Assembly (NCBI GenBank): GCA_963811315.1
Contig: CAWERH010000039.1
Span: 4,501-68,500, forward strand
Length of the DNA: 64,000 bases
Source: an uncultured delta proteobacterium
Lineage (GTDB): Bacteria; Desulfobacterota; Binatia; UBA9968
Direction of reading: 5' to 3'
Shown: positions 2,647 through 23,082 of the stretch, piece by piece
Numbering within the stretch: the first letter of the stretch is position 1
Layout: each line of letters begins with the position of its first letter
The notes under the pieces: model-generated
The model's input: only the letters and a program-made list of their open reading frames with translations
Database searches by the model: none
Told to the model about the DNA's origin: nothing
Translations under genes and position numbers: made by a program

Positions 2647-2810
2647 TGCGGCGTCCTTTCGCTGTGCCGAGGACTGTAACGATTCTCCATTAATAACGTC
2701 AAGCGCATGGTCTGAGTTTTCTATCTGAATCTCTGGAAGTGTTTCAGTTAGAGAAAGATCTCTCACGGAGTCTACCCTGAGTCTGCCCGAAGGGTTCGAG
2801 ATGACAGATA

Positions 2811-2858
2811 AGTTGCCTGCTGTCATTCCGAGCGGAAGCGAGGAATCTTTCCCTGTCG
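2811..2858. repeat. partial MITE/REP-like element (single arm GTCATTCCGAGCGGAAGCGAGGAATC preceded by a short ATGACAG..CTGTCAT hairpin)
   Basis: Shares the GTCATTC[CT]GAGCG-AAGCG-GAATC arm with the full hairpin copies at 7135, 14928, 36470, 49717 and 52488. Confidence 0.4.
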
Positions 2859-2967
2859 TCGTTTGGTGACGAAAATCTAACTGAACCACTACCGAATCTC
2901 TATATCTAATTGCAGTTTGGCGCGGCGTTTCTTATGATCGCCGAAATTGTTTTCTGCGAGGTAGCCA

Positions 2968-3960
2968 ATGACGCTTCGGAGTCGTAAATCCAAGTTTCTT
3001 GTCTGCTTTATTTTGGCTGTTGTTATTCTCACCGGCACCCATACGGCTGCCCTCGCCCAGGACAAAATTCGCGCCGCCTATAGTTCGATCAGCGGGATTT
3101 TTACTCCGGTGTGGATCGCCAGCGATCTGCGGCTCTATCAAAAGTATCAGACCGACGCCGATCTCGTGTACATCGGCGGTTCGGCGGTGGCGGTGAGTGC
3201 GTTGATCGCCGGTGAAATCGATTTTATCTACGGCGGAGCCGATCCGATTATTGCCGGTATTTTGGGTGGCGCGGATCTCACGCTGGCGGGATTCATCTCC
3301 AATAAGACACCGATCAGTCTCTATGTTGGCCCTGGGCTTACCAAAGTCGAAGATCTGAAAGGCAAAACCGTGGCGGTGACCCGGTTGGCTTCGAGCACTG
3401 CCTATATGGCGAAGGTTTGCTTTGGCCAGTATCGCTTGGAGCCGGTGAAGGATATCCCGTTGATTCAATCGGGCGGCTACCCGGAATCGCTGGCGATGCT
3501 GCAAGCCGGACGCGTACAGGGCGCGATGCTATCGCCGCCGTTTACCTATAAAGCCGAGGCTCTTGGCTTCAAACGCATCTGGAACGGCTCCGGCGTGGAG
3601 TATCCGTCTTTCGTCCTGGCGACCCGCAAAACATTCATCCGTGACTCCGCCGATCGAGCACAAAGGGCTTTTAACGCGGTCGCCGAAGGCGTGCACATCT
3701 TCAGAACCGACAAGGAGCGGGCCATTCGCGTCATGGCGAAATACACCAAGGTCAACGACCGAACGATTCTTGAAAATACCTACTTGGATAACAAGGACGT
3801 CTACAGCCCCAACATGCGCCCGACCGCGAGCGGCGTAAAACCGATTCTGGATATTCTGGCAGCGTCCAATCCGAAGGCCGCAGCGGCGAAGCCGGAACAA
3901 TTTTTCGACGTGACCCTGTCACGGCGTTTGGAAGAGAGCGGCGTGATGAAAAAGTTCTAA
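2968..3960 (+). CDS. NMT1/THI5-like (SsuA/TauA-type) periplasmic substrate-binding protein
   Basis: 330 aa with signal peptide and DKIRAAYSSISG...DLKGKTVAV motifs. Member of a large paralog family in this window. Confidence 0.85.
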   Translation: MTLRSRKSKFLVCFILAVVILTGTHTAALAQDKIRAAYSSISGIFTPVWIASDLRLYQKYQTDADLVYIGGSAVAVSALIAGEIDFIYGGADPIIAGILGGADLTLAGFISNKTPISLYVGPGLTKVEDLKGKTVAVTRLASSTAYMAKVCFGQYRLEPVKDIPLIQSGGYPESLAMLQAGRVQGAMLSPPFTYKAEALGFKRIWNGSGVEYPSFVLATRKTFIRDSADRAQRAFNAVAEGVHIFRTDKERAIRVMAKYTKVNDRTILENTYLDNKDVYSPNMRPTASGVKPILDILAASNPKAAAAKPEQFFDVTLSRRLEESGVMKKF

Positions 3961-3965
3961 GCGGT

Positions 3966-5006
3966 TCACGTCATATTGTAAAATCGTTTGGCATTCTCGC
4001 TGAAAACTTTTCGCTTGACCCGTTCCGATAGATCGCCCCTTTCCCAGAATTCGGGGATGTCCTTGGCGAACGCGCCGGCTTCGCGCTCGTGGGGGAAGTC
4101 GGTGGGATACATCAGGTAATCCTCGCCCATCTCGCGCACGACGACATCGAGGGTCTTTTCATCGGTTTCACAGGTAATGTAGATGTTGCCGTTCTTGAAG
4201 TAGTCGCTGGGCTTCTTGCTCAGCGGAAAATGTCTGCGTTTGCGATCGATGTGGAATTTCTCATCCATTCTATCCATCATGTACGGAATCCATCCAGCGC
4301 CGGCTTCGAGGAATCCGATTCTCAGCTTCGGATAAAGGTCGAAGACACCGTCGAGGACGACGCTGGTAAGCTGGATCATCTGCGCGATCGGATGTTCGAG
4401 CGTGTGGATCATCGACATGGTCTGGAGAAAATCGAAACCCAAACCGCGGCTCACCGCCCCGTGCACGGTCAACGGTACGTTCAGATCCTGCGCTTCTTTA
4501 TAAATCGGATGGAAATCCTGATGGCCATAGCCTTTATTCAGCATGGTCACCGCGGGCAAGAGGCCCGCAACCATGCGCTGTTCTTTGACCGCGCGGCGCA
4601 GTTCGGCGGCGGCTTCCGGCGGATTGTGCACCGGCAGCAACGCCACGCCTTTCAATCGGGCGTCGACTTTGCAGTAACGATCGAAGAGCCAGTTGTTATA
4701 CATGCGCGCCACGACGCAGGCCCAATCGGGATCTTGGATCAAGCCCAGGGACAGCCCGGCGGTCGGATAGAGCACCGCGGCGGAGATCTTCGAGCCCTCG
4801 ATGAACTGGATCCAACTATCGGAGGTAACCTTGGTGACCTTGTCGATGCCGCGCACAAAGCCGCGCGGCCAGCCGTCGAGCGAGGGAAAAATTGAAAAAG
4901 TCCCGGTGCGCCGATGGCCTTTATAATCTCCATCAAAGTATTGCTCTAGCTCCGCGTCGGTTTCCAATACGTGGCCGTCCGCATCGATTACAGTGACTCC
5001 ATCCAT
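3966..5006 (-). CDS. amidohydrolase-2 family protein
   Basis: 346 aa, MDGVTVIDADGHVLE... with HxH start and a C-terminal DFPHE acid/His region. Intact ORF. Confidence 0.85.
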   Translation of the reverse strand: MDGVTVIDADGHVLETDAELEQYFDGDYKGHRRTGTFSIFPSLDGWPRGFVRGIDKVTKVTSDSWIQFIEGSKISAAVLYPTAGLSLGLIQDPDWACVVARMYNNWLFDRYCKVDARLKGVALLPVHNPPEAAAELRRAVKEQRMVAGLLPAVTMLNKGYGHQDFHPIYKEAQDLNVPLTVHGAVSRGLGFDFLQTMSMIHTLEHPIAQMIQLTSVVLDGVFDLYPKLRIGFLEAGAGWIPYMMDRMDEKFHIDRKRRHFPLSKKPSDYFKNGNIYITCETDEKTLDVVVREMGEDYLMYPTDFPHEREAGAFAKDIPEFWERGDLSERVKRKVFSENAKRFYNMT

Positions 5007-5205
5007 CTTATGAATCCTCCATCAGCGCGCTTTGGAAAAGCTTTTTCGTTTTGGCTTAGCACCAGCGCGAGAAGGGTGTCAATTCGCCGGATGGTGTTTC
5101 CGATGGGTAGTGACTTATGCGACGTGTGGCATGATCGAAAGTCCGGTTTTGACCGCGCCGCGGCTTTGTATTAAGTATCAGGAAGCCAGGAGGGAACGAG
5201 AGAAG

Positions 5206-5322
5206 ATGGATGCTGCGAATCTGCAAGACAAGATCGAAGCGACCGTTAAGTCTGGCAAAGACAAAATGTATTTCGATTTGTTCTTACTTGGCGCGGGTCT
5301 TTCAAAAACGCGTGAGGCATAA
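5206..5322 (+). CDS. small hypothetical protein (38 aa), possible leader or small ORF
   Basis: ATG at 5206 follows SD AGGAGGG (5188-5194). It encodes MDAANLQDKIEATVKSGKDKMYFDLFLLGAGLSKTREA and lies upstream of amidohydrolase 5364. No homology recognised. Confidence 0.25.
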   Translation: MDAANLQDKIEATVKSGKDKMYFDLFLLGAGLSKTREA

Positions 5323-5363
5323 TAAGAATTTAAATATCTTCATACAGTAAGGAGATCACGAGC

Positions 5364-6452
5364 GTGGGAATTATCGACGCAGACACTCATATCGACGAAA
5401 CGGACGCGACTTGGGAATACATTCAGGAAGACGACTTGCCCTACAAGCCGTCGACGGCTTATCCATCGAATCCGGACCCAAAACTGCCGCCGGCGCGTTA
5501 TTGGGTGATCGACGGCAAGCGTCAGGTGCGCTTCATTCGCAGCGATAAAGATTCGGGCACGACCGTGGCGACCCGCGAGCTGCTGGATGTCAAAGCACGC
5601 CTGAAGCATATGGATGAGTTGGGCACGGACATACAGGTGATTTATCCGACGTTGTTTCTCATGGAAGCGACGGAAAAGCCGGAAATCAATACCGCGATGC
5701 GACGCAGCTATAATCGTTGGTTGGGCGAGCGCTGCGGCGAATCGGGCGGCAGATTGCGTTGGGTGTGCATGCCGCCGCTGCAGAATATGGACGCGACTGT
5801 CGAAGAACTGACCTGGGCTAAAGAGCATGGCGCCTGCGGTGTTTTGAAAAAAGGTGACCGGGAAGTGGGTAAATATCCGGCCGATCCATACTTTGAACGG
5901 CTGTATGCCGAAGCCGAGAAACTCGATATGCCGATCTGTCTGCACACCGGATCCGGGATTCCGGATTTTTCGCCGGCGCGAGAATTCTCCCACGGTCAGT
6001 TCATGCGCACGAAGGCGGCAGTGATCAATGGAGTGCTCGGCCTGGTGCTGCACAAGATCCCCTTAAAGTTCCCCAAGCTGCGCATTGGCTGCATCGAAGC
6101 CGGTTCGATGTGGGCGCCGTTCGTGGCTTACGATTTAAAGCGCCAGGCTTTAAAACAGCAGGGACGTGAGTCGGTAGGGGTTCTCGGTGTGCCGCTGATC
6201 GACATTCCGGCGAACGTCTTCAAAGACAACCGAATCTATGTGACGTGTCAAGTGGACGAAGATTTGCCCTACATCCTCAAAACCATCGGTGAAGATAATT
6301 TGATGGTCGGATCGGATTACACCCACCGCGACCCGTCAATGGAACTGGAGTTCCGCAAGGAATTGGAAGGACGCGCCGACAAAGGCGACATCCCGCAGGC
6401 GTCGGTGCAGAAGATTCTTTACGACAACCCGAAGGCGTTCTATGCGCTATAA
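5364..6452 (+). CDS. amidohydrolase-2 family protein
   Basis: 362 aa, GTG start after SD AAGGAG: VGIIDADTHIDETD...YPTLFL...MVGSDYTHRDP. Intact. Confidence 0.85.
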   Translation: MGIIDADTHIDETDATWEYIQEDDLPYKPSTAYPSNPDPKLPPARYWVIDGKRQVRFIRSDKDSGTTVATRELLDVKARLKHMDELGTDIQVIYPTLFLMEATEKPEINTAMRRSYNRWLGERCGESGGRLRWVCMPPLQNMDATVEELTWAKEHGACGVLKKGDREVGKYPADPYFERLYAEAEKLDMPICLHTGSGIPDFSPAREFSHGQFMRTKAAVINGVLGLVLHKIPLKFPKLRIGCIEAGSMWAPFVAYDLKRQALKQQGRESVGVLGVPLIDIPANVFKDNRIYVTCQVDEDLPYILKTIGEDNLMVGSDYTHRDPSMELEFRKELEGRADKGDIPQASVQKILYDNPKAFYAL

Positions 6453-6522
6453 TCATCTTGTCGCCCGATTGCGGCGAGCTTAACGCCGTGAGCGGTCGTT
6501 AAACTGAAGAAGAGGAGTTTAG

Positions 6523-7074
6523 ATGATCATTCTCAGTCCGGAAGGAAAAGCGCAGACCTCAGGGGCAAAAATCGCGAGCTTGCCGCAGTTCACCGAACTG
6601 CGCGGCAAAGTGGTCGGTTGGCTCGACAACAGCAAGCCCAACGCCGACAAGCTGGCGGAACGGTTTGGCGAGCTTTTAAAAGAAAAATACGGCGTGGCCA
6701 ACATGATTACCAGGCGCAAACTGACCGCGCAGCAAGGCGCGCCGAAACAATATCTCGACGAGCTCGCATCGCAGGCCGACTTTGTCATCTGCGGCCTGGG
6801 TGATTGAGGCTCGTGCACGTCGTGGAGTGTCCACGACTCCCTCGAAATTCAAAAGCGCGGCCGTTTTGCGATCACGCTGATCACCCACGCTTTCGTGGCG
6901 CTGGCAAAATCCGAGAAGGAAGCTTTTGGCGCGCCCGATCACCCGGTGTTGGTCGTGCAGCATCCTATCGGCACGGTCAAAATCGAAGAAGTTAACAAGA
7001 AGGCCGAGGCGGCCTTCGATCAAGCTGGTAAAAATCCTGCTCGACGCCGGAAACGGCGCGGTCAAAGTCGCTAG
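6523..7074 (+). CDS. UGSC-motif selenoprotein (UGSC-family (seleno)protein), copy 1; in-frame UGA at 6805-6807 read as selenocysteine
   Basis: The ORF tool stops at TGA 6805-6807 (..FVICGLGD*). The same frame continues GSCTSWSVHDSLEIQKRGRF... to TAG 7072-7074. The downstream peptide is conserved with paralog 18780-19343. A SECIS-like hairpin sits 11 nt after the UGA. SD AGAGGAG lies 6 nt before the ATG. Confidence 0.7.
6819..6837 (+). other. candidate bacterial SECIS stem-loop GUCGUGG-AGUGU-CCACGAC
   Basis: A perfect 7-bp stem with a 5-nt G-containing loop starts 11 nt 3' of the UGA. The 27 nt tcgtgcacgtcgtggagtgtccacgac are identical to paralog 19071-19097, while flanking synonymous sites have diverged. 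Confidence 0.6.
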
Positions 7075-7134
7075 CCTGGAGGTTGGAGTTTCGGTCTCGA
7101 GTCCGCAGGATCGTCAAGCCGGCCCTTCGAAAGC

Positions 7135-7220
7135 TGTCATGATGAGCGCGAGCGAAGCATCCAGGTTCGCAGTGCCGTTCAGTTAAGAGAAGCCTGGATT
7201 CCTCGTGCTCATGGCAATGA
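7135..7220. repeat. MITE/REP-like imperfect hairpin element (termini GTCAT...ATGAC)
   Basis: tgtcatgatgagcgcgagcgaagcatccagg ... cctggattcctcgtgctcatggcaatgac form an ~85-nt inverted repeat. It is intergenic, between the selenoprotein gene and its partner gene. Confidence 0.55.
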
Positions 7221-7303
7221 CGGAAGGGCGACTTACAGTTGGCACAGTCAGGTTATTCTGGACGAAAGGTGACGGCGGGATTTGAGGGAACGTTTACGCA
7301 AAA

Positions 7304-8357
7304 ATGGCAGAACAACCACTTCAAGCGGAACGATTCGAAATTCCCGACGACCTTTGGGCGGCGCAGGCTTTTTTTGAAGAAAAGGGATGGTCCGATGGTT
7401 TGCCGATCATTCCGCCGACGGAAGAGCGGGTGGCGCAGATGCTCGGCGGCGACGACCCGAAAACCGGACGAGTTGATCGGCGCGGTGCCGCCGCGCTGGG
7501 CGCAGGCGAGCGTCGAGAAGATCGCGATCAATGGCGTCATGGCCGGATGCAAACCGGAGTACATGGCAACCCTGATTGCCGCGGTCGAAGCGATCACCGA
7601 TCCCAAGCTCAATCTTTATGCGTTGCAGGCGACCACGGGCGGACCGGCGGTGATGATCATCATCAACGGCCCGATCCGCCATAAGCTCAACGTCAACGGC
7701 GGGCCCAACGCGTTGGGCGAAGGGTGGCGCGCCAACGCCACCATCGGCCGGTTCGTGCAATTGATCAAACGCAATATCGGCGGCTCCTATCCGGGCACCA
7801 CCTGCAAGGCGACGCTTGGCTGGCCGGGAAAATATTCGATCTGCGTCGGCGAAAATGAAGAGGCGAGTCCGTGGGAACCGCTGCACGTGGAGCGCGGTTT
7901 CAAAGCCGAGCAAAGCACGGTGACGGCGATCAGCGCCGATGCTTCAATACGAGCGTCGGATTTGGACAGCTCGAAAGCGGAAGGCGTGCTGATCAATTTC
8001 GCGCAGAAAATGGACGGCCCGTCCGGGCCGGAAGCGATCATGGTCATTTGCCCGGAGCATGCCAAGATCATTGCCGATGACGGCTTCAGTAAGAAAGACG
8101 TGCAGAAATTTATCTGGGAGCGCGCCGCGTACCGGATGAAGGATTTGCCGGACGAGACCTTCGCGCAACGGGTCAAACGGCGCAGCGATCTGAAGCTCAC
8201 CCGCGACAGCATCATTCCGGTGACCGATAGGCCGGAGGACATACTCGTCATCGTCGCCGGCGGTGACGGCTCGCAGTCGCAGTACATCCACGTCTGGGGT
8301 CAGAGCACGCCGGAAGGCGGGTCGACGCGCAGCGTCACGAAACTCATACGGGATTAA
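7304..8357 (+). CDS. conserved hypothetical protein genetically linked to the UGSC selenoprotein (partner, copy 1); frameshift at the A4 run 7460-7463
   Basis: MAEQPLQAERFEIPDDLW..GLPIIPPTEERV (ORF 7304) continues in ORF 7239-8357 as ..ELIGAVPPRWAQASVEKIAINGVMAGCKPEY...GWPGKYSICVGENEE... It is paralogous to 19885-20967 along its whole length. Confidence 0.7.
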
Positions 8358-8405: not shown

Positions 8406-8418
8406 AACGCATTGTCCG

Positions 8419-9440
8419 ATGTCTTACCCTCGCCCGCTTGCGGGAGAGGGAAGGGTGAGGGCGTGCATCGACGCGTTATTAATTATCAGCCTGCTTTTGA
8501 GCTTTGTTGTCCTGGTAGCGAAATTTGCTTCGCCGCCGACAAGCTGCGCATCAGTTACTCGGGCACGACGACGAGCAACGCGCTTCTTTGGGTGACCAAG
8601 GAAGCGAAACTTTTTGACAAGAACGGCATCGACGCGGAAGTGCTTTATCTGGCGGCGTCGCTCGGCCAGACCGCGTTGATCGCGGGCGAGACCCAGTTCG
8701 CGGTCTACACGGGACTGCTGATGACGCCAACCCGCCTGCAAGGCGCCGACGTTACGATGATCGCCGGGTTTCTAAATTATCTGGTCTCGCGCTTGGTCGT
8801 GCGTCCGGACATCAAGACCGCCGCGGATTTAAGAGGCAAACGTTTGGCCGTGTCGCGTTTCGGCACGGCGTCGGATTTCGGTACCCGCTTGATGGTGTCC
8901 AAGCTCGGTTTGAATCCCGACACCGACGTCACGATCTTGCAGATCGGCGACACGCCCACCCGGGTCGCCGCACTGATGGCCAAGAGCGTCGACGGCGCGA
9001 TCTTCGATCCGCCCGATCACAAAAAGGCCATCGAAAACGGCGGCCGCATCATGATGAACTTGGAGGAAACCGCGATTCCGTATCAGCATGCCGGTTTGAT
9101 GACGACGCGAAAGTACATCGCCGCCCGGCCGGACATCGTTCGGCGGGTGGTCAAAGCGATTGTCGAGGGCGCCGCGGTGGTGCGCAAAGATCCGGAGACC
9201 ACCAAGCGGGCGCTGTCGATCCGCATGCGCATCAAAGATCCCAAAGACCTCGAAGAAACCTATCAGCAGCTGCGCGGCTTCACGCAAGCCAAACCCTATC
9301 CAAGCCTGGAAGGTTTCAAAGCGATCTTGAACGATTTGTCCAAGCGCGTGCCCGCGGCGAAAAATGCCGATCCGAAAGATTTTGCCGATCTCCGGTTCGT
9401 CGAAGAACTGGATAAGTCGGGTTATATCGATGGACTCTAA
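8419..9440 (+). CDS. NMT1/SsuA-like periplasmic substrate-binding protein; frameshift near 8545
   Basis: The signal-peptide frame MSYPRPLAGEGRVRACIDALLIISLLLSFVVLVAKFA shifts into AADKLRISYSGTTTSNALLWV... The gene is a tandem paralog of 9494-10471. Confidence 0.75.
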
Positions 9441-9470
9441 AGGCGTGAGGCTTGAGGCGGGAGGCTAGAG
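9441..9470. repeat. 7-mer tandem array AGGCGTG AGGCTTG AGGCGGG AGGCTAG
   Basis: It follows the TAA stop at 9438-9440 directly. Confidence 0.4.
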
Positions 9471-9493
9471 TCGTGTGGACAAAGACGTATTTT

Positions 9494-10471
9494 ATGCTTG
9501 AAAAGTTAACGCCGATTCTCACTGTAATTCTGGCTGCAGTTTTGTTGCTGCGCTCCGCATCGGCCGGCGCCGCCGATAAGATTCGTATCGGTTACTCCGG
9601 CGCGACGGTCAGCAACGCGATGCTCTGGGTGACCGACGAAGGCAGACTGTTTCAAAAAAACGGCATCGATCCGCAAATCCTCTATTTGCAAACGACGCTC
9701 GGACAGACGGCGATGATCGCCGGTGAAATCGACATGTGCGTCTACTCCGGCAGTCTGCTCTCGGCGGCGCGCTTGCAGGGAGTCGACGTGGTGATGGTCG
9801 TAAGTTTTCTCAACAAGCCGCTCTATCGGCTGGTGGTTCGCCCCGAGATTCGCACGGTCGCCGATCTCAAGGGAAAACGGCTCGGCATCACGCGCTTCGG
9901 CACTGTCACCGATTCGATGTCCCGGCTCCTGATCAACAAACTCGGACTCGATGCCGAGAAAGACGTTTCTTATATTCAGGTCGGTGATGTGCCAATCCTG
10001 TTAGCTTCCTTGTCGTCAGGCAAGATTATCGACGGCGCGATCATTCAGCCGCCTTATTATTTGAAGGCGGTGGCCACCGGCATGCGCGTTTTGGTGAATA
10101 TGCAAGAGATGGACATCCCGGTCCAACAAACCGGGCTCAATACCACGCAGAAGTTCATCGCGAAAAATCCCGATGTCGTGCGGCGGGTAGTCAAGTCGGT
10201 GATCGAAGGGATCCATCTGATGCGCACCAATCCCGCCGTGGCCAAGCGGGCGCTCTCCAGGCGCATGCAGATCAAAGATGAAAAAGAGATCGAAGACACC
10301 TATCAATTGCTGAAGAGTTTCGTGCAGATCAAGCCGTATCCGACTCTGGAAGGCTTCAAAACCATTTTCGAAGATCTGGCGAAAAGAGTTCCGGCGGCAA
10401 AGAACGCCAATCCCAAGGAATTTGTCGACACCCGGTTTATCGAAGAGTTGGATAAGCTCGGGGTTTATTGA
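9494..10471 (+). CDS. NMT1/SsuA-like periplasmic substrate-binding protein
   Basis: MLEKLTPILTVILAAVLLLRSASAGAADKIRIGYSG... Intact. The ATG at 9494 is preferred over the ORF-tool start at 9452 because it gives a proper signal peptide. Confidence 0.85.
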   Translation: MLEKLTPILTVILAAVLLLRSASAGAADKIRIGYSGATVSNAMLWVTDEGRLFQKNGIDPQILYLQTTLGQTAMIAGEIDMCVYSGSLLSAARLQGVDVVMVVSFLNKPLYRLVVRPEIRTVADLKGKRLGITRFGTVTDSMSRLLINKLGLDAEKDVSYIQVGDVPILLASLSSGKIIDGAIIQPPYYLKAVATGMRVLVNMQEMDIPVQQTGLNTTQKFIAKNPDVVRRVVKSVIEGIHLMRTNPAVAKRALSRRMQIKDEKEIEDTYQLLKSFVQIKPYPTLEGFKTIFEDLAKRVPAAKNANPKEFVDTRFIEELDKLGVY

Positions 10472-10524
10472 CGCATTGGAGCGCCAGTGATACGCGATGC
10501 TTGACGGATAATTGGGGAGGAACG

Positions 10525-11520
10525 ATGTTGAGAATACAAAGATCGCTGATGGGTGTCGCTTTGATTGTGGCTTTCGCCACTCCTGCCCTGGGGCAAAGCC
10601 TGCCCAAAGTCCGCGCCGCCTACACATCCATAAGCATCCAATTCGATGCGGTTTACATCATGAAGGAGCTCAACCTGCCGCGGAAATACGGCTTGGATGC
10701 CGAAATTCTTTTTGTGCCGGTGAGTTCGCGCGCCGTGCAGGCGGCGCTCGCGGGCGAGATTCAATTTATCACCAGTGGCGGCGTGGCCAATATCAATGCG
10801 AACGTCACAGGCGCCGATTTCACCGGGCTTACCGCGACACTCAATACTTTTGTCTTCAAGGTCTTCGCGAGCCCGGAGATCAAAAAGCCTGAGATGTTAA
10901 AGGGCAAGAAGGTCGGCATTTCCCGTCTCGGCGGCGCCAGCGATTTTTCTATTCGCTATGCGCTAAATTACTGGGGTCTCGTCCCCGACAAAGACGTTGC
11001 CATCATCCAGGTGGGCGGCGAACCGGAGTCGCTTCTGGCGCTACAAAACAAAGCCGTGGACGCGGCGATCTTATCGGAACCGTTTGCAAGCCTGGCAAAG
11101 CGCAATGGCTCAGTGCTGCTGGCTGATTTAAGTCAGCTCGGCGTGCCTTACACGATGCACGGCTTCGGGGTGCGCAAGAGTTACATTCAGGCCAATCGGG
11201 ACGTTGTCGTCCGATTCATGAAAGCCTATCTCGAAGGCATCTATGTTTTCAAAACCAACAAGGACATTGCGTTGAACGTCCTGAAAAAATATACCCGGCA
11301 GGACGATCTTTCCCTCGTACAAGTGGCCTATGAGGAAATGTCCCAGAAGCTTATCCGCAGAGTCCCGTACCCCAACCGCGAAGGGATTCAGACGATCATA
11401 GATCAGCTCGCCAAGACCCGGCCGGAAATGAAAAATCTCAACCCCGGCGACTTCATCGATCCGTCGATCTTGAAAGAAATCGAGGACAGCGGGTTTATTA
11501 AAAAGTTGTATGGAAATTAG
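10525..11520 (+). CDS. NMT1/SsuA-like periplasmic substrate-binding protein
   Basis: ATG at 10525 after SD GGAGG: MLRIQRSLMGVALIVAFATPALGQSLPKVRAAYTS... Intact. Confidence 0.85.
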   Translation: MLRIQRSLMGVALIVAFATPALGQSLPKVRAAYTSISIQFDAVYIMKELNLPRKYGLDAEILFVPVSSRAVQAALAGEIQFITSGGVANINANVTGADFTGLTATLNTFVFKVFASPEIKKPEMLKGKKVGISRLGGASDFSIRYALNYWGLVPDKDVAIIQVGGEPESLLALQNKAVDAAILSEPFASLAKRNGSVLLADLSQLGVPYTMHGFGVRKSYIQANRDVVVRFMKAYLEGIYVFKTNKDIALNVLKKYTRQDDLSLVQVAYEEMSQKLIRRVPYPNREGIQTIIDQLAKTRPEMKNLNPGDFIDPSILKEIEDSGFIKKLYGN

Positions 11521-12669: not shown

Positions 12670-13521
12670 ATGAACGAGAGCATTTCTTCGACTGAGATGA
12701 ATGACCCTATGGTTCCGGTGCCGATTCCGGCGCAGGTTCCGGTCAAGGAGGGGATCGCCGAGCTTCCCGACACCCATCTTGGGTATTGGGATACGGGCGG
12801 CGGCGGAGAGCCGGTGGTGTTTCTCCATCCAGCGTCGGGTAGCGCGCTGGTCTGGCTGTACCAGCAGCCCGTATTTGCAAAAGCCGGTTACCGTGTCATC
12901 GCTTATTCGCGGCGCAACTATTACAACTCGGACTCGGCGCCCGAGGAGAATCCGGGGAGCGCATCGGAAGACCTGCAGAATCTGATCGAATTTCTCGGCC
13001 TGGAGAAGTTCCATTTAGTCAGCTCGGCCGCCGGCGGCAGCATCGCTGCCGACTACGCGCTATCCCACCCGGAGCGTCTGCTTAGCCTCACGGTATCCAG
13101 TAACAACCTTGCGGCTGCGAAAGGCTACATCGCCGAGGCCGCCGCCAGGATCAAACTCAGAGAGTGGGACGATCTGCCGCGCTGGCATCGCGAGCTCGGC
13201 CCTTCCTATCGCGCGGTCAACCCCGATGGCGTCGCCAAATGGACCGAGCTCAACCACAAATCAGAGACCGGCAGGGGCGCCCGGCAAAAGTTGGTGCATG
13301 TCGTGACGCCGGAGAAGCTGGCGACCCTCAAGGTTCGGACGTTGCTCATGACCGGCGCCGCCGATATGTTCACGCCGCCTTCGATTATGCGGATGATCGC
13401 GCGCCATGTTCCCGACAACGAGCTAGTGATCGTGCCCGAGTGCGGCCATTCGGTCTATTGGGAGCAACCCGAGCTGTTCAACCGCACCGTGCTCGGATTT
13501 ATCGGCCAAACTTCGAAATAG
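12670..13521 (+). CDS. alpha/beta hydrolase fold protein
   Basis: 283 aa: ..EPVVFLHPASGSALVW...HLVSSAAGGS (nucleophile elbow)...PECGHSVYWEQPELF. SD AGAGGAA lies 6 nt upstream. Confidence 0.8.
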   Translation: MNESISSTEMNDPMVPVPIPAQVPVKEGIAELPDTHLGYWDTGGGGEPVVFLHPASGSALVWLYQQPVFAKAGYRVIAYSRRNYYNSDSAPEENPGSASEDLQNLIEFLGLEKFHLVSSAAGGSIAADYALSHPERLLSLTVSSNNLAAAKGYIAEAAARIKLREWDDLPRWHRELGPSYRAVNPDGVAKWTELNHKSETGRGARQKLVHVVTPEKLATLKVRTLLMTGAADMFTPPSIMRMIARHVPDNELVIVPECGHSVYWEQPELFNRTVLGFIGQTSK

Positions 13522-13808: not shown

Positions 13809-14881
13809 ATGAAAAAAAGTTTTTCGCCGCCGTGATTTCACTTCTGGTTTGCACATGGGCCGTCGCCGCGAGGCCAACGTCCGCGCAGGAGACCGCTGGC
13901 CAGATTTTGGCGAAGCTTGAAAAACTTTCCACCGAGAACCGGCAGAAAGTCCTGGTCGAGCGCGCAAGGAATGAGAAAGAAGTCACTTTCTATAGCTCCC
14001 TTCAGACCACCGATGCAGAACCCTACGTGAAGGCGTTCAACAAGCGCTATCCTTTTATCAAGGTCAATATCTACCGTGTCTCCGGGCAGAAACAGGTAAT
14101 CATGATCCAATCGGAATTTAACGCCGGCAGGCATGCCTTCGACATTACCAATGCCTCGGCTGCTCAAGCCTTTGGCATCAAGAAGACCGGCGCGTTGGAC
14201 CCGTATCAAAGTCCCCAGCGGCAATACTTTTCCACCGCGCATAAAGACAAGGAAGGATACTTCACCCCGACTTATATCGTCCCGGTGGTGCTTGGCTACA
14301 ACACCAATATGGTCAAGCGCAACGAATTGCCCAAACGCTATGAAGACCTGCTGGAGTCCAGATGGAAGAGTAATATGATCTTGGACATCGAGGAGTTTCC
14401 CTGGTTTGCGGTGTTACTCAAACACTATGGCCGCGAAAAGGGTTTGGACTACATGAGACGGCTGGCCAAACAGGATATCCAGATGGGGCGGGGACGCACC
14501 ACCCAGGCGCAGCTCATCAGCGCGGGCGAGCGGGCCGTCGGCATAGCGCTCAACAGCTCTTCCGTGCTCGACTTCAAAACTCGCGGCGCGCCAATCGACT
14601 GGACCATTCTCGATCCGTATTACGCCAAACCCAATATGCTGATGTTTGCGCGCCACGCGCCTCACCCGCATGCGGCGGCGCTATTGATCGACTGGACGCT
14701 CTCCGAGGAAGGGCAGTCGCTACTGGCGAATTCGGGTTACGTGGTAGCGCGCAAGGGCGTGAAACAAAGCACCCCGGCATTATTGGAAAAGGAGAGCTTT
14801 CTCGCCGATCCCGACTTTATTGGCCCGATCTTGGAAGAGACCGGCAGAGACTTTCGCAGCGTATTCACAGGCGGACGCTAG
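13809..14881 (+). CDS. extracellular solute-binding protein family 1 (Fe3+/ABC-type periplasmic binding protein); frameshift in the A7 run 13812-13818
   Basis: Adding one A gives MKKKFFAAVISLLVCTWAVAARPTSAQE... (signal peptide) followed by ..YPFIKVNIYR...LPKRYEDLL... Paralogous to 34193-35246, 35443-36451 and 42190-43242. Confidence 0.75.
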
Positions 14882-16007: not shown

Positions 16008-17021
16008 TCAACGGTAGCCGGCATCGTCGGCAGGCAGACCACGTTCTTGGACCTCCACGAGGTAGCGCCAGCAGTCCGGCTGGGTGCCGTCGATGTCGGT
16101 GAAGCCGTAGATGGGGGCGAGCTGTCCGCTGGAGACGACCTTACCCGTCCAGCGCGCAACCTCCGGGTCCGCTGCGAGGGCGGCGACCGCGCGGCCGACG
16201 TAGGTCGGCGACTCGGAGATGCAAAAGTGCGGCATGCGGGCGGTCGCGTCCCGCCAGTTTGCTTCGGTCACGCCGTACGCGTCGAGCATCTTCTCCGAAC
16301 GCAGCCAGCCCGGAGTTACGGCGACGGCCGCGCCGTGGTGCGGGGCCAGCTCGTGACTCTGCGCGAGAGCCATGCGCTGCACGGCGTTTTTGACCAGGTC
16401 GTAGAAGAATCCCACCTGGTGGCGGTACGCCGCGTTGTACTCTGCGGTCCCGTCGGTCATCTCGATGACCAGCCCGCCGGGGCGGCGGATGAGCAGCGGC
16501 AGGGCGTGGTGGCTGGTGATCGCATGCGTGTCGATGCCCAGGCGCAGCATTCGCAGCCCGCCGGCGAGGTCGTGCTCCCACAGCTTGGTGTTGAACTGGA
16601 GGTAGGTGTCGCCGCCCCAGATGTCGTTCACGAGCACGTCGAGGCGGCCGTGGTCTCGGTCGATGCGCTGGACGAGATCGCGCACCTGCTCGCTTTCGAG
16701 GTGATCCACCCGCAAGGCGATTCCCACGCCCCCGGCGGCGGCGATCAGCTCACCGGTCTCTTCGATCGTCTCCGGCCGGTTGATTTCCGACCGGCCTGCC
16801 CGGCTGCTGCGCCCGGTGGCGTAAACTGTCGCACCCGCGCGGGCAAGCTCTACGGCAATCGCACGTCCGGCGCCGCGCGTGGCGCCTGCGACTAACGCCA
16901 CTTTCCCGGTTAATGCTCCAGCTTTTGCTTCATTCTTCGCTGTGGCTTCCATTGGCATTTTCTTCTTGCGCGCACCCTTCCGCGCGCCACGAAACTTAGG
17001 TGCGTTTTCAACAAGCCTCAT
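16008..17021 (-). CDS. short-chain dehydrogenase/reductase (SDR) family oxidoreductase
   Basis: ..GKVALVAGATRGAGRAIAVELARAGATV.. (TGxxxGxG Rossmann motif). The ATG at 17019-17021 overlaps the TGA of the upstream amidohydrolase in an ATGA arrangement. The +strand ORF 15930-16895 is an antisense artefact of ~70% GC. Confidence 0.8.
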   Translation of the reverse strand: MRLVENAPKFRGARKGARKKKMPMEATAKNEAKAGALTGKVALVAGATRGAGRAIAVELARAGATVYATGRSSRAGRSEINRPETIEETGELIAAAGGVGIALRVDHLESEQVRDLVQRIDRDHGRLDVLVNDIWGGDTYLQFNTKLWEHDLAGGLRMLRLGIDTHAITSHHALPLLIRRPGGLVIEMTDGTAEYNAAYRHQVGFFYDLVKNAVQRMALAQSHELAPHHGAAVAVTPGWLRSEKMLDAYGVTEANWRDATARMPHFCISESPTYVGRAVAALAADPEVARWTGKVVSSGQLAPIYGFTDIDGTQPDCWRYLVEVQERGLPADDAGYR

Positions 17022-18114
17022 AGCCCATAAAACTTCCTCGGATTGTCACACAAGATCTTTTCCACGAGACTTGGCGCCACGTCTTCGCGCGCCTTCATCT
17101 GGGTCACCAGATGAGCTTGTTCAGCGGGGTCGTTGTGACCGTAGTCGGAGCCGGTGAGCAGGTGGCCTTCGCCGGTGTACTTGATTAGGTAGGGAATATC
17201 TTCGTCGGCCTCGCAGGCGACGAAGAAACGGCAATCTTCGAAAAGATCGGCAGGGGATTGCCACGATGCTTTCCAGCGTTTGGTGTTGTCGCGCCGTAGC
17301 TTGTGGATCAAGTAGGGTATCCAACTGGCGGAAGCTTCGATGAAGCCGAAGCGCAGTTTTGGAAACATGTCGGGAATCTGATTGAGCACGAGATCGCGAA
17401 ACGCGTGCAGGGGCGGAAAGCCGGAGTGAGACCATTGCCGATTGCGCTCCAGATCGAACATCGCGGTGACGGCCGGGGTGCCGGAGCCGGTGTGAATGCA
17501 GATCGGTAGATCGAGTTCCATCGACGTTTGATATACCGGGAAAAAGTACGGGTTGTCCAAGGTCAAGTTGCCTTCCATGCCGCGGAAGAATACCCCGACG
17601 GCGCCGTTTTGCTTGGCCCACTTCAGCTCCTGCACCGATTCCTCGATGCAACGCAGCGGCGGGATCGCCACCCAGTGGATGCGGTCGTGACTCTGCGCGC
17701 AGGCTTGCGCCATGAAACGGTTATAGGCGCGGCTCAACGCCACGTCGAGCTCGGCGTCGTCGGTGAGGTAGATCAGAAACAGAGTCGGATAAACCACCTG
17801 AGCCGCGATGCCGCCGCGATCCATATCGGCGAGCCGGGCCGGGACGTCGGTCAACTCTCGGCACGCGACCTGAATGTCTTTTCTGTTCGATTGGATTTTC
17901 GACGCCGAGGGGTGACGAGACGGAAGCCGCCCTTGCCGACCGGCTTGGGAAAAATGTTGCCGTCGATCAGCCAGGTCGCATTCCAGCCGCCGTATAACGT
18001 GTCGTCCGGCAGAGACAGCAAAACCGGCCGGCGCGGGTACATCTCCTTGTCGATCATCTGCCACATGGCTTCCGATTCGGCTACGTGAGTATCGGCATCG
18101 ATGATGGGTTGCAT
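17018..18114 (-). CDS. amidohydrolase-2 family protein; frameshift at the G4 run near 17908-17911
   Basis: N-terminus MQPIIDADTHVAESEAMWQ..GKGGFRLVTP (ORF 17851-18114) joins ..SASKIQSNRKDIQVACRELTD...PICIHTG...TGSDYGHND..FYGL (ORF 17018-18064). Paralog of 1533-2646. Confidence 0.75.
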
Positions 18115-18779: not shown

Positions 18780-19343
18780 ATGGCGACGATTAAATTTCTC
18801 GATCCCCGAGTGGTGATCAATCCCAAAGACCAGCCGCTGGTGCCGGGTCTGGATACGCTCGAAGGAAAAGTTATCGGCATCATCGATAACGGGCAGGCCA
18901 ATTCGACGACGATGTTTCAAGAGCTGGCGCAACTGATGCAAGAAAAACTTCATACCAAGGAAGTTCTGTTCAAAACCAAACCGACGCACATGCAGGGCGC
19001 GCCGAAACCGATCATGGAAGAAATCCTCAACCGGTGCGACGCGGTGATCACCGGTTTAGGCGCTTGAGGGTCGTGCACGTCGTGGAGTGTCCACGACGCC
19101 ATCGAATTGCAAAAGAAGGGAAAGCCGACGGTAACCCTGTGCCAGTCGATCTTTATGGCGCTGGCGCGCACCGAGGCGAAGTTTTTCGGCATCGCTAAAT
19201 TACCTCTGGTCGAAATCCCGCATCATCCGAGCGGCGGCGCACGGCCTGGTGAGCATCGAGCGGATGCCGAGGGCGCGGTTAGTTTGGTTAATGAGCAGTT
19301 GACGCTGGGTGGGGCGGCGTTGAAGAAGACGCGACAGCGGTGA
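18780..19343 (+). CDS. UGSC-motif selenoprotein, copy 2; in-frame UGA at 19065-19067 read as selenocysteine
   Basis: ..VITGLGA U GSCTSWSVHDAIELQKKGKPTVTL... continues to TGA 19341-19343. The peptide after the UGA aligns with copy 1 (SLEIQKRGRFAITL.. versus AIELQKKGKPTVTL..). SD AGGAGG lies 9 nt before the ATG at 18780. Confidence 0.7.
19079..19097 (+). other. candidate bacterial SECIS stem-loop GUCGUGG-AGUGU-CCACGAC (identical to 6819-6837)
   Basis: It starts 11 nt after the UGA and its nucleotide sequence is conserved between the paralogs. Confidence 0.6.
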
Positions 19344-19465
19344 TCCTGGAGCGATGGAGGAAGAAATATGGATAAGCGTGATCGAGTTTCGGGTTGATTT
19401 TGAACGGTGCCGCATTCCTTTCCCCCTTGCGGGGAAAGGAAAGGATAGGGGGTATGCGAGCAACA

Positions 19466-19864
19466 ATGAACGCGAGCCCGGAAGCTGCGGAAAAATCCAA
19501 CCGATGCCGAGCGTTTGCTCTGGCAAAACTTCGTTTCTGGCAAGTTGACGGTTGCAAATTTCGCCGTCAACAACCCTATAGGAAATTACATTGTTGACTT
19601 TGTTTGTTTAGAAAAAAGATTGATTATCGAGGTCGACGGCGGACAGCATGCTGAACATATGAATTACGGATACCGACCGTGATGCTTGGTTACGAAATCC
19701 GAGGGTTATGTAATTTTAAGATTCTGGAACAACGATGTGTCTAAGAAGATAGATGGCGTCAAGGAAGTGATATTTCAATCCTTGCAAAGCACCCCCTACC
19801 TTAGTCCTTCCCCGCAATCGGGGGAGGAATGGTTGAGAAGCTAGGAAGATCGCATCGAGCACGA
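19466..19864 (+). pseudogene. DUF559 (Vsr-like endonuclease domain) gene with at least 4-5 frame disruptions; pseudogene or error-dense
   Basis: Reconstructable as M-TRARKLRKNPTDAERLLWQ|KLRFWQVDGCKFRRQQP|IGNYIVDFVCLEKRLIIEVDGGQHAEH..DRDAWLRN..GYVILRFWNNDV..IFQSLQ across three frames. Each break is at a short homopolymer. The gene sits in a ~540-bp lower-GC insert between the selenoprotein gene and its partner. Confidence 0.55.
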
Positions 19865-19884: not shown

Positions 19885-20967
19885 TTGGAGTTACCGACAG
19901 TGCAAAACCTCACCTCTAACCTCATCGAAGTCGAAGACAGCTGGGAAGCGGTCAATGACTGGTTCTGCAACGAAAAACTGAGTGACGGTTTGCCGATCGT
20001 GCCGCCTACGGCGGAGCGGGTCGAACGAATGCTCGAGCGCGACGAATCGCGGGATCCGCAGGAAGTCATCGGGCCAATCCCGCCGAAGTGGGCGCCTTGT
20101 TCGATCGAGAAGATTGCCATCAATGCGGTCATGGCCGGCTGTTTGCCGGAATATTTGCCGGTGATCATCGCGGCGGTGGAAGCGATCTGCGAACCGCGCT
20201 TCAATCTCTATGGCGTGCAAGCGACTACCGGATACGTCGGCCCGGCGCTCATGCTCAACGGTCCGATTCGCAAAGCACTCAACGTCAATTGCGATGCCGG
20301 CGTGTTTGGTCCCGGCTTTCGCTCCAACGCGACCATCGGCCGCGCCATTCGATTGATTCTCATCACCGTCGGCGGCGGCTACCCGGGCGACACCGATCGC
20401 TCGACTTTTGGCTGGCCGGGCAAGTACACCATGTGCTTTGGCGAAAATGAGGAGAAGAGTCCGTGGGAGCCGTATCACGTGGAGTTCGGTTTTAAACCTG
20501 ACGAAAACAGTGTGACGGTGTTCGGCATCAATGGTTTTTTGCCGATCCACACGGCCGGCAGTCGCGGCGAGCAGGCGCTTGCTTCGCTCGCAGAAGTTAT
20601 TCGCATGCACCACGGCGTGAGTCATCTCGACGTCGGCAGTTTTGGCGGCGGCACACCGCTGGTTGCCCTGGGCGTCGAAGACGCCGAGATCATGGCGCGC
20701 GACGGCATCACCAAGAAACAAGTCAAGGACTTTCTCTGGGAGCACGCGTCGCTCAAATTTTCCGAAGTTCCGGCGCGCCGCAAAGGCCACAAAGACGACG
20801 CCGAGTTGCTGCGCGAATCGCCCAACGTTACCCCCGATGGCGTCGTCCATCTTTCCACGAAGGCCGAAGACATCATGGTCATCGTGGTTGGCGGCAAGCA
20901 TCGCCATTCGGTATTTCTGCCGATGTGGACCGGGCGCAATACGCTGTGCGTGATCAAGCCAATTTAA
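19885..20967 (+). CDS. conserved hypothetical protein genetically linked to the UGSC selenoprotein (partner, copy 2)
   Basis: 360 aa and intact: ..SDGLPIVPPTAERV..EKIAINAVMAGCLPEY..NLYGVQATTG..GWPGKYTMCFGENEEKSPWEPYHVE.. TTG start at 19885. The 19891-21120 minus-strand ORF is antisense. Confidence 0.75.
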   Translation: MELPTVQNLTSNLIEVEDSWEAVNDWFCNEKLSDGLPIVPPTAERVERMLERDESRDPQEVIGPIPPKWAPCSIEKIAINAVMAGCLPEYLPVIIAAVEAICEPRFNLYGVQATTGYVGPALMLNGPIRKALNVNCDAGVFGPGFRSNATIGRAIRLILITVGGGYPGDTDRSTFGWPGKYTMCFGENEEKSPWEPYHVEFGFKPDENSVTVFGINGFLPIHTAGSRGEQALASLAEVIRMHHGVSHLDVGSFGGGTPLVALGVEDAEIMARDGITKKQVKDFLWEHASLKFSEVPARRKGHKDDAELLRESPNVTPDGVVHLSTKAEDIMVIVVGGKHRHSVFLPMWTGRNTLCVIKPI

Positions 20968-21010
20968 TAGCAATTGGAGTAGTGGAGTGATGCGGAAGAA
21001 GATCGAGGAT
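20968..21010. repeat. tandem repeat array (TGGAGTAG/TGGAGTGA then GAGGATG x3) overlapping the start region of the next gene
   Basis: ttggagtagtggagtgatgcggaagaagatcgaggatggaggatggaggatcg. Confidence 0.35.
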
Positions 21011-21999
21011 GGAGGATGGAGGATCGCCCGCGCGGCGGCGATTTTCATGCTCGCGTTTCTGTTCGCCACGGTTTGTAATGCGCAGGAGAAATTTCGCTTT
21101 CCGATCGCTGAATCGTCCAAGACCTTGAGCTATGGTCCGCTCTGGGTCGCCTCGAAGATGGGTTTCTTTGACAAGGAAGGCTTGGACGTGCCGATCGTCA
21201 CCATGCGCGGTTCGCCGCTGGCGATTCAGGCGCTGACCGCCGATTCGATTTATATCGCCAACGCGACCGTCGATACCCTGATCAACGCCTACGAGAAAGG
21301 CGCGGATATCACGATGATCGGCGGGCCTGATCAACGGGCTTGGACTTGAGCATGATCGGCGGCAAGCCCTATAAGACCTATGCCGACCTGCGCGGCACGA
21401 CGATCGGCACGCAGACGCTGACTTCCGGCACTGGATTCGCTCTTCGCTTGGTGCTCAAGGTGCACGGCTTGGAATATCCGCGCGACTACGCGCTGCTCAA
21501 CATCGGCGGCGCTTCGGACCGCTATCAAGCGCTGACGTCCGGTCAAATTTCTTCCGCCCCGGTCGGCGTGCCTCTCGATCTGGTTGCCAAACAGCAAGGC
21601 TTCAACATCATCGGTTATTTTGCCGATGACCAACCGAACTTTCAGTTTAATGTCTACATCGTCAAACGCTCCTGGGCGGAAAAAAACCGGCCGCTGACGG
21701 TGCGCTTCATGAAAGCGATGGCGTCGACCATGCGCTGGATGGCGGACAACCGCGACGCTGCCTGCACCTATCTTTCAAAGGAAATGGCGATCAGCGTCGA
21801 GCATTGCCGCTATGCCTCCGACTACAACTGGAAAAGCCGCATCTGGGACCGCAATGCCGATATCAACATCGAGGGCGTGCGCACGCTGATCAAAATCACC
21901 GCCGAGCAAGGCATTCTCAAAGAACCTTTACCCCAGCCGGCGAAATACCTCGATCAAAGTTATCTTAAGCAGGCGCTGGCGGAACTGGCGAAGAAATAA
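20987..21999 (+). CDS. NMT1-like periplasmic substrate-binding protein (subtype B, paralog of 29216-30186); frameshift near 21335
   Basis: ORF 20987-21349 (..FLFATVCNAQEKF..LWVASKMGFFD..TMIGGPDQR) joins ORF 21340-21999 (LDLSMIGGKPYKTYADLRG...LEYPRDY...). Confidence 0.75.
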
Positions 22000-22056
22000 C
22001 AAGGCGAAGAGGCACGAGGCTTGAGACGGAAAACTACAAGGGATTGAGGAGATCGC

Positions 22057-23058: not shown

Positions 23059-23082
23059 GAAACGTTCGTTTCGGACAAGCCG

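Follow-up and report, generated by a model that had tools for sequence, protein, structure and literature searches.

The selenoprotein UGSC, whose selenocysteine segment resembles that of GrdB/PrdB, and an unannotated partner family form a near-obligate, often fused two-protein unit

Here we describe two gene cassettes in a 64,000-nucleotide stretch of DNA (the window; positions 4,501 to 68,500 of contig CAWERH010000039.1, from the Binatia-type metagenome-assembled genome (MAG) of an uncultured delta proteobacterium), in each of which a gene for the selenoprotein UGSC is followed on the forward strand by a gene for a large protein of about 360 amino acids (aa). Across genomes, UGSC and the large protein constitute a near-obligate, often fused, two-protein unit. 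In cassette 1, the UGSC gene (6523..7186) has its selenocysteine (Sec) codon TGA at 6805-6807 and a frame shift near 7022-7024, a hairpin resembling a selenocysteine insertion sequence (SECIS) lies at 6819..6837, 12-30 nt past the UGA (8-bp stem, z -3.0), and copy 1 of the large partner gene occupies 7304..8357, its frame broken by a 1-nt insertion at ~7445-7449. In cassette 2, the UGSC gene (18780..19343; 187 aa) has its Sec TGA at 19065-19067, the SECIS-like hairpin (19078..19098) has a 9-bp stem and shares in the family covariation described below, and copy 2 of the large partner gene (19885..20967) is an intact single open reading frame (ORF) of 360 aa with a TTG start; all these features, like those of cassette 1, lie on the forward strand. 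Between the two genes of cassette 2 stands a broken forward-strand DUF559 (endonuclease-like) gene (19394..19844), which is outside the system and matches PF04480 at 19515-19682 (E 2.5e-14) and 19686-19844 (E 1.3e-5) with a stop between. The original prediction gave the spacers between UGSC and the large gene as 230 and 540 bp; the arithmetic was right, but the first would shrink to ~117 bp once the UGSC frame is corrected, and the second owes its length to the broken DUF559 gene. In relatives, the spacer corresponding to that of cassette 2 runs from ~150 to ~525 bp.

Each large gene does lie downstream of a same-strand UGSC gene with an in-frame TGA, as had been claimed. The UGSC proteins match Pfam family PF24696 at 147.5 bits (copy 1) and 139.9 bits (copy 2; cut-off 25), and at the NCBIfam equivalog model NF041046 (cut-off 125) copy 1 scores above the cut-off with 128 and copy 2 below it with 110.1. 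With TGA translated as Sec (U), cassette 1 reads ...GLGD-U-GSCTSWSVHD and cassette 2 ...GLGA-U-GSCTSWSVHD. Among 78 UGSC genes that adjoin large genes, the motif codon is TGA in 74, TGC in three and a Ser codon in one, a divergent copy. Both UGAs in the window are followed 12-14 nt downstream by the hairpin, whose core 5-bp stem is kept across 37 UGSC genes from many lineages, with compensatory changes at three of the five pairs; in one example, a change from Trp UGG to Cys UGC is matched by a change from Val GUC to GUG and the pair is retained. Moreover, in four soil metagenome runs many otherwise unrelated contigs match the window only over the 33 nt of the UGA plus hairpin (6805-6837), where they produce a spike in depth with loose ends and divergence on either side. 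This pile-up is consistent with nucleotide-level conservation of the stretch among many different UGSC genes.

Cassette 1 is not open as assembled. That 7304-8357 is a paralog of copy 2 over its full length was borne out (full-length protein alignment, 45% identity, E 3e-85), but that it is one open gene was not: the 1054 nt are not a multiple of 3, the first ~47 codons are in one frame and the remainder in the +1 frame, and the ORF pieces 7304-7684 and 7239-8357 are in different frames. Contigs with close relatives of the window, from these four soil metagenome runs, were used to check the breaks; RNA runs contained small shares of the sampled words only. A contig from a closely related soil population lacks the base at 7447, which restores MLGATTRKPDELIG / ...MLGATTRKPDELIGAVPPRW, and this reading matches the intact large-gene orthologs P0119 and P0123. 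In UGSC copy 1, a 1-nt insertion at ~7022-7024 throws the C-terminal ~55 codons out of frame; another related contig lacks the base at 7024, which restores the UGSC C-terminus ...AAFDQ-LVKILLD..., and the UGSC ortholog at locus L016, which continues ...AAFDKLLETLVE, agrees with the +1 frame LVKILLD of cassette 1. The true stop of UGSC copy 1 is thus probably at 7184-7186, leaving the spacer of ~117 bp. The AAAA run at 7460-7463 was considered as the frameshift site in the large gene and dropped for ~7445-7449 on the evidence of the relatives' contigs. Several other genes are split in a similar way, namely that of an NMT1-type solute-binding protein (SBP; 20987-21349 / 21340-21999, break ~21340), an amidohydrolase gene (17018-18064 / 17851-18114), a further large-gene copy of the same MAG on contig C47 (C47:66319-66329) and, in three pieces, a gene for a GrdB-like protein on contig C57 (C57:19100-20133). 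Because these genes are split likewise, the breaks in cassette 1 are likely to be assembly indels rather than decay, each correction being drawn from one low-depth relative contig; the many single-base splits suggest an indel-rich assembly of the long-read type.

The genes for Sec insertion bear on the same question. Searches of the window's own MAG (92.7% complete) gave no match over the cut-offs for selA, selB or selD, and the best match for tRNA-Sec scored 46.2 against a threshold of 47. Related UGSC-bearing genomes carry selA and selB in five of five cases, and in two of them the genes are adjacent, so that the gap might come down to a single missing contig; the likely cause is that the MAG is incomplete. 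The same MAG holds five UGSC genes and about seven genes for GrdB-like proteins with in-frame TGA, and a betaproteobacterial MAG with many UGSC genes (G083) is also without selA. It could be argued from the two frame breaks in cassette 1, the DUF559 remnant inside cassette 2 and the failure to find the sel genes in the MAG that the window holds no functional system, cassette 1 being a decaying pseudogene pair and the adjacency of the genes merely inherited. We regard this as highly improbable, more so than any other alternative weighed below: the SBP gene at 20987-21999, the amidohydrolase gene at 17018-18114 and the copies on C47 and C57 are split in the same way, as fits assembly indels, the contigs of related populations are without the extra bases, cassette 2 is unbroken and matches its orthologs at 87-89% identity, and relatives carry selA and selB. 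From sequence, both cassettes of the window are probably functional.

The large protein had been called a member of no recognised family, and so it proved: it has no match in Pfam, NCBIfam or PADLOC (anti-phage defence), the last of which has no match for UGSC either, and a profile search against sequences in the PDB returned noise only. A word-index search recovered more than 7,500 relatives, all labelled 'hypothetical', and an exhaustive search yielded 4,953 representative clusters with E<=1e-3 (1,279 with E<=1e-30), which puts the family at ~5,000 clusters at 50% identity. Given this size, the lack of a Pfam or NCBIfam model and the lack of a convincing solved fold, the family is a sizeable annotation gap. 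In the ESM Atlas its relatives fall into 'hypothetical' clusters, plus one labelled 'Thioredoxin (Fragment)' and one of 417 aa with PF24696 in 16% of its members. All the motif blocks quoted earlier for the two window copies were found in both, and the family motifs present in them are DGLPxxPPT, AINAVMAGC (VMAGC), NATIGR, GxPGKYxxCxxENEE and PW. Conservation was counted over 150 representatives, of which 149 were scored, in the numbering of copy 2: E187 is present in 149/149, N148 and R153 in 148/149 each, W194 in 146/149, C86 (the Cys of VMAGC) in 144/149 and C184 in 133/149. The VMAGC Cys, previously described as invariant, is therefore nearly so and not strictly, being Ala in a fused copy of the window's own genome. 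Six representatives of 709-741 aa (P0126, P0133, P0135, P0154, P0203 and P0269) have two tandem large domains per chain; two such representatives scanned against Pfam gave no match.

The linkage between the two families was assessed in a scan of one genome per species, which gave 80 foreign loci with 94 large genes. By record label, the loci belong to Binatia, Chloroflexota/Dehalococcoidia, Methylomirabilota/Rokubacteria, Betaproteobacteria, Acidobacteriota, Actinomycetota, Poribacteria, Sphingomonas, a gammaproteobacterium and the haloarchaeon Natrialba asiatica, with at least 10 phylum- or class-level groups in all. A same-strand UGSC gene lies within 1.6 kb of 82/94 large genes and a divergent UGSC copy beside one more (83/94), at a median gap of ~120-130 nt. 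Seen from the other side, 81 evenly sampled genomes of the window's own phylum contain both families in the same 10 genomes and neither in the other 71, and all 32 of their UGSC matches adjoin a large-gene match; in five further genomes a large gene adjoins 34/35 UGSC genes, so that in the pooled 15 genomes 66/67 UGSC genes stand beside one. UGSC genes are thus generally adjacent to the large family, a point that the original prediction had put forward for checking. Its statement that the large gene always lies downstream holds for the window (2/2) and for the whole MAG (5/5 pairs) but fails elsewhere, where UGSC precedes the large gene in 58 pairs and follows it in 24.

Consistently, the two proteins are often found in one chain. 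Contig C11 of the same MAG encodes a fusion of 558 aa in a single frame, which starts with UGSC, including an in-frame TGA, and continues with a large domain in which C86 is Ala and C184 is retained, and many representatives of 528-563 aa consist of a full UGSC followed by the large domain (for example P0142, P0146, P0151, P0164 and P0205). Many further proteins of 410-470 aa (e.g. P0145, P0148) begin just past the Sec codon and are gene-caller truncations of such fusions. The reverse order occurs in P0152, in which the large domain is followed by UGSC and which ends exactly before Sec. A fusion of UGSC to a domain termed 'Unknown_1' was reported in 2008 (PMC2398784); this domain is probably our partner family.

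The pair has also multiplied within genomes. G034 has 14 fused copies and G083 has 24 copies, and in a Chloroflexi MAG of ~5.0 Mb (G086; JACPQD01) at least 150 distinct places pass the Pfam cut-off for UGSC, almost every one of them with a single in-frame TGA; it also has at least 150 matches to the large-partner profile, many of them fused, and a single selA gene. This MAG is co-assembled and strain mixing may have added to the count. It is also the genome of six of our loci (L022, L023, L030, L033, L034 and L055). Paralog numbers in the tens, or above a hundred, in a single genome would argue for many substrates and against a single housekeeping role.

Structure prediction was applied to both proteins. 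The AlphaFold2 (AF2) model of UGSC from cassette 2 (predicted local distance difference test (pLDDT) score 89.9) shows an alpha/beta sandwich like that of flavodoxin or CheY, built of five parallel beta-alpha units, in which Sec96 lies within U-G-S-C at the turn from strand 3 into the following helix. Its top structural matches are flavodoxin, CheY and periplasmic binding protein (PBP)-type domains at Z 10-11, with no thioredoxin among them, and the UGSC profile found noise only among PDB sequences. In earlier work UGSC was a stand-alone protein of unknown function, for which a 'likely Trx-like fold' (Trx, thioredoxin) was given (PMC1976440, PMC2398784; Zhang & Gladyshev 2007/2008), whereas the protein described here has a flavodoxin-like model, apparently in place of the Trx-like fold suggested in 2008 (PMC2398784), and is one half of a near-obligate pair. 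UGSC is also reported from Hyphomonas neptunium (PMC1976440). The AF2 model of large copy 2 (pLDDT 85.7, predicted template modelling (pTM) score 0.89) places C86 in a turn between two helices. For this model, the best match by Foldseek is to Toblerone-fold cyclic amide hydrolases (E 8e-4, template modelling (TM) score 0.18), followed by class I fumarate hydratase and YjgF / chorismate-mutase-like domains, while VIA-align reaches no more than Z 4.3, placing residues ~185-351 (Z 4.3) and ~110-352 (Z 4.2) on beta-alpha-beta-beta modules. These scores are at background level, and the large protein has neither catalytic residues nor sequence similarity in common with Toblerone, fumarate hydratase or YjgF-like proteins.

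A complex between the two proteins is supported by co-folding. The pair modelled was a natural Cys-type UGSC and its partner from Natrialba asiatica, whose genes overlap in ATGA. It reached an interface score (ipSAE) of 0.81 in three runs, as against 0.00 for the best of three controls; this mark is reached by 51/78 solved complexes and by 2/108 mismatched pairs. At least 81% of contacts were common to the runs, the partner had a pLDDT of at least 81, and sequence searches of the PDB brought up no similar complex. The confident interface draws on residues 11-24 of UGSC, the conserved N-terminal '...ILDP...' tail, which has no regular secondary structure when UGSC is folded alone, together with residue 137. 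On the partner side, it comprises the N-terminal strand, the PPT motif (DGLPxxPPT), residues 149-162 and the segment that starts at the PPxW motif (copy 2: PPKW) and includes the helix up to VMAGC; in the model, the UGSC tail rests on the PPT motif and on this helix. It had been suggested that the interface would bring Sec close to the conserved Cys of VMAGC; an interface is predicted, but the Sec/Cys loop against this Cys is not among its confident contacts, and the idea is therefore neither confirmed nor excluded. In the locus modelled (L029, Natrialba asiatica DSM 12278, 2805-8235), the pair at 4327-6017 is flanked by a Lyase_1/ADSL-like gene and a DUF6282 gene, and a flanking ORF on the minus strand (7297-8235) is, as a guess from its sequence, of the isocitrate-lyase/phosphoenolpyruvate-mutase type. 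As a named culture-collection strain whose pair needs no Sec, N. asiatica DSM 12278 suits experiments.

A clue to the chemistry comes from selenoprotein B of the Stickland reductases, which are known from anaerobic fermenters. GrdB acts with GrdE in glycine, sarcosine and betaine reductase, and PrdB with PrdA in D-proline reductase; the Sec of GrdB/PrdB is a nucleophile, not a ligand, and GrdE and PrdA are processed at a Cys. The window's own genome encodes seven GrdB-like selenoproteins (PF07355), with TGA directly past ...LTAT/LTST and then G-T-[CSG], and each of their genes adjoins a GrdE/PrdA-like gene (PF09338); the pairs lie at C47:78284-80927, C52:66017-68555, C52:103034-105378, C54:87980-90392, C57:19100-21458, C67:11404-13806 and C70:25655-30836. 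So many GrdE/GrdB-like pairs were unexpected in a Binatia-type MAG from soil. Profile alignment by hhalign sets UGSC 86-174 on GrdB-like 339-423 with Sec on Sec (75% probability, E 2.5e-5, 82 columns), and the two share the motifs U-G-[ST]-C, E-L-x-K-x-G-x-P and PHPxG. TIGR01917 also has a weak match to UGSC around Sec (15.3 bits, cut-off 602), and the Pfam scan of UGSC, which has only 187 aa, gave no PF07355 match. These similarities suggest that the Sec-bearing halves of UGSC and GrdB/PrdB are homologous.

Such a likeness invites the idea that the large protein is the analogue of GrdE/PrdA, a proenzyme that cleaves itself at Cys86 to yield a pyruvoyl or other electrophilic group, which binds an amine that the UGSC Sec then attacks. 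The established Cys processing of GrdE and PrdA, the 97% conservation of C86 and its place in an inter-helix turn would accord with this, as would the seven GrdE-like/GrdB-like pairs of the genome, which have the same layout of a partner plus a U-G-x-C protein. Yet neither sequence nor profile comparison links the large protein to PF09338, and the fused copy in the very same genome, which bears Sec, has Ala in place of C86, and we hold the proenzyme idea to be very improbable. Somewhat less improbable, though still decidedly unlikely in our view, is an interface metal or Fe-S site with Sec96, Cys99, C86 and C184 as ligands, which would make the pair a hydro-lyase-type or metal-dependent enzyme. 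Four conserved chalcogen ligands across two chains would suit such a site, and the weak fold matches of the large protein include domains of class I (Fe-S) fumarate hydratase and L-serine dehydratase; these matches are, however, at noise level (TM 0.18-0.28, Z <=4.3), the Sec loop lies outside the confident interface, and the Sec segment appears to be akin to its counterpart in GrdB/PrdB, in which Sec serves as nucleophile.

We lean, at slightly better than even chances, towards the reading that the large family is a dedicated partner subunit of UGSC and that the pair is a two-subunit, Sec-dependent, substrate-specific enzyme. That the two proteins are a two-component unit, as originally proposed, is upheld by co-occurrence, adjacency, fusions in both orders and a co-fold past its controls; a redox role, also proposed, is suggested by the U-x-x-C motif together with the resemblance to GrdB/PrdB. 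In our model, the large subunit would provide the substrate pocket, with E187, N148 and R153 essentially invariant and C86 and C184 nearly so, and UGSC would provide a selenolate nucleophile or redox centre. Sec might cycle through a Se-S bond with Cys99 that a thiol system re-reduces, and the reaction could be, by analogy to the Stickland reductases, a reductive cleavage or related group transfer on small organic substrates.

The same residues may be read in another way, as a thiol-selenol relay in which UGSC itself is the enzyme or carries electrons, the large protein is an oxidoreductase or recycling partner dedicated to UGSC, and reducing equivalents pass between C86/C184 and Sec96/Cys99 with no small-molecule pocket in the large subunit. 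The two near-invariant cysteines of the partner (144 and 133 of 149), the U-x-x-C of UGSC, the presence of all four residues in 70/94 pairs and the predicted tight complex are in keeping with a relay. We nevertheless think it unlikely, since Pfam places no redox domain in the partner, motifs for a nucleotide, flavin or Fe-S cluster are absent from it, its most invariant residues are E187, N148 and R153 rather than cysteines, Sec is kept in members without C86 or C184, and more than 100 relay paralogs in one genome would be odd.

Several observations weigh against a two-subunit, substrate-specific selenoenzyme. Some 10% of large genes stand without a UGSC neighbour (UGSC was found elsewhere in the genome in 9/9 tested genomes with an unpaired large gene), and in Poribacteria (L073, L081, L082, L088; G089-G091) the large protein has a shorter form of 315 aa with no adjacent UGSC, the UGSC gene being on another contig or 2.3 Mb distant. 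C86 and C184 can each be replaced in some members. The co-fold was of a haloarchaeal stand-in folded without alignments, not of the window's own proteins, and leaves the Sec/Cys loop outside the confident contacts. Comparison of the large protein with the genome's own GrdE-like proteins by hhalign gave a probability of 0.02%, there was no PF09338 match at E<=1, and hhalign found no similarity between the large family and the N-domain of GrdB; the chemistry suggested for the complex would rest on analogy. Finally, there are the two frame breaks in cassette 1 as assembled, and neither the sel genes nor a clear tRNA-Sec was found in the MAG (92.7% complete).

In the window, tandem genes for NMT1/THI5-like SBPs lie at 2968-3960, 8412-11520 and 20987-24079, three in a row at two of these places, and Amidohydro_2 genes at 3966-6452 and 17018-18114. 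It had been proposed that the cassettes act on the same class of substrate as these neighbours; near the pair in the 80 foreign loci, however, Amidohydro_2 occurs in five and an NMT1-type SBP in four, nearly all of them in records labelled Binatia/Deltaproteobacteria, and with proximity so rare the shared-substrate idea is unsupported. The amidohydrolase/SBP neighbourhood is specific to this lineage. Clustering of ORFs across the 80 loci found no third conserved gene; the largest extra cluster consisted of antisense shadow ORFs and was discarded. In locus L014 (845-7077 of the Binatia MAG DATBMR01), orthologs of both window cassettes stand in direct tandem, in the order Amidohydro_2, UGSC-1 type, large-1 type, UGSC-2 type, large-2 type, SBP, unlike the two cassettes of the window, which are 12 kb apart. 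Beside the poribacterial large gene of L081 are a 493-aa ORF and an ORF that probably encodes an aldo/keto reductase. Other genes in the window encode an alpha/beta hydrolase (12670-13521), an SBP of the SBP_bac_6/SBP_bac_1 type (13832-14881), a short-chain dehydrogenase/reductase (16008-17021) and an enoyl-CoA hydratase (24409-25248).

The UGSC family and one fusion, reported in 2008, were known already; what appears to be new is the partner family, the pairing and the likeness to the GrdB Sec segment. No paper returned by a literature search describes the partner family, the near-universal pairing, the GrdB likeness or a function, and UGSC is still listed as uncharacterised in reviews, one of them from 2026 (PMC13188914). 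With its partner, this orphan selenoprotein becomes a defined two-component system that is open to expression, co-purification and assay, and its resemblance to GrdB/PrdB around Sec supplies a concrete hypothesis of mechanism; Cys-type pairs such as those of N. asiatica DSM 12278 and of the Sphingomonas records, as at locus L057, should not need Sec insertion, and P0164 is a fused member of the Cys type. The UGSC-partner module is most likely common in soil and water bacteria, and its paralog expansions bear on the use of selenium by some soil and groundwater bacteria. More tentatively, and as a claim that we would sooner doubt than assert, the pair may represent an unrecognised major class of two-subunit selenoenzymes with a new catalytic-subunit fold, a non-Stickland counterpart of GrdB/PrdB whose substrate-specific paralogs have multiplied in Chloroflexota, Burkholderiales, Binatia and others, reaching from tens to more than 150 in one genome. 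If this reading were true, some bacterial selenoproteomes would exceed twice the published record, the highest predictions for bacteria being 57 and 63 genes (PMC13188914).

By comparison with known systems, we infer that the UGSC pair is a two-component Sec enzyme in kind, with an unrelated and structurally unplaced partner. UGSC is without the 330-aa GRDB N-domain of GrdB, its partner is unrelated to GrdE/PrdA, and none of the genes for GrdA, GrdC and GrdD was found linked to the UGSC pair, no search aimed at GrdA having been made. Sphingomonas, Natrialba and Burkholderiales, which are among the names of records that host the pair, have cultured members that are aerobes. What UGSC and selenoprotein B have in common is the placement of Sec at a turn from strand to helix, and the UGSC pair shares with GrdB plus GrdE and PrdB plus PrdA of the Stickland reductases a common layout, in which a Sec protein with U-G-[ST]-C is encoded next to a partner of 350-430 aa.

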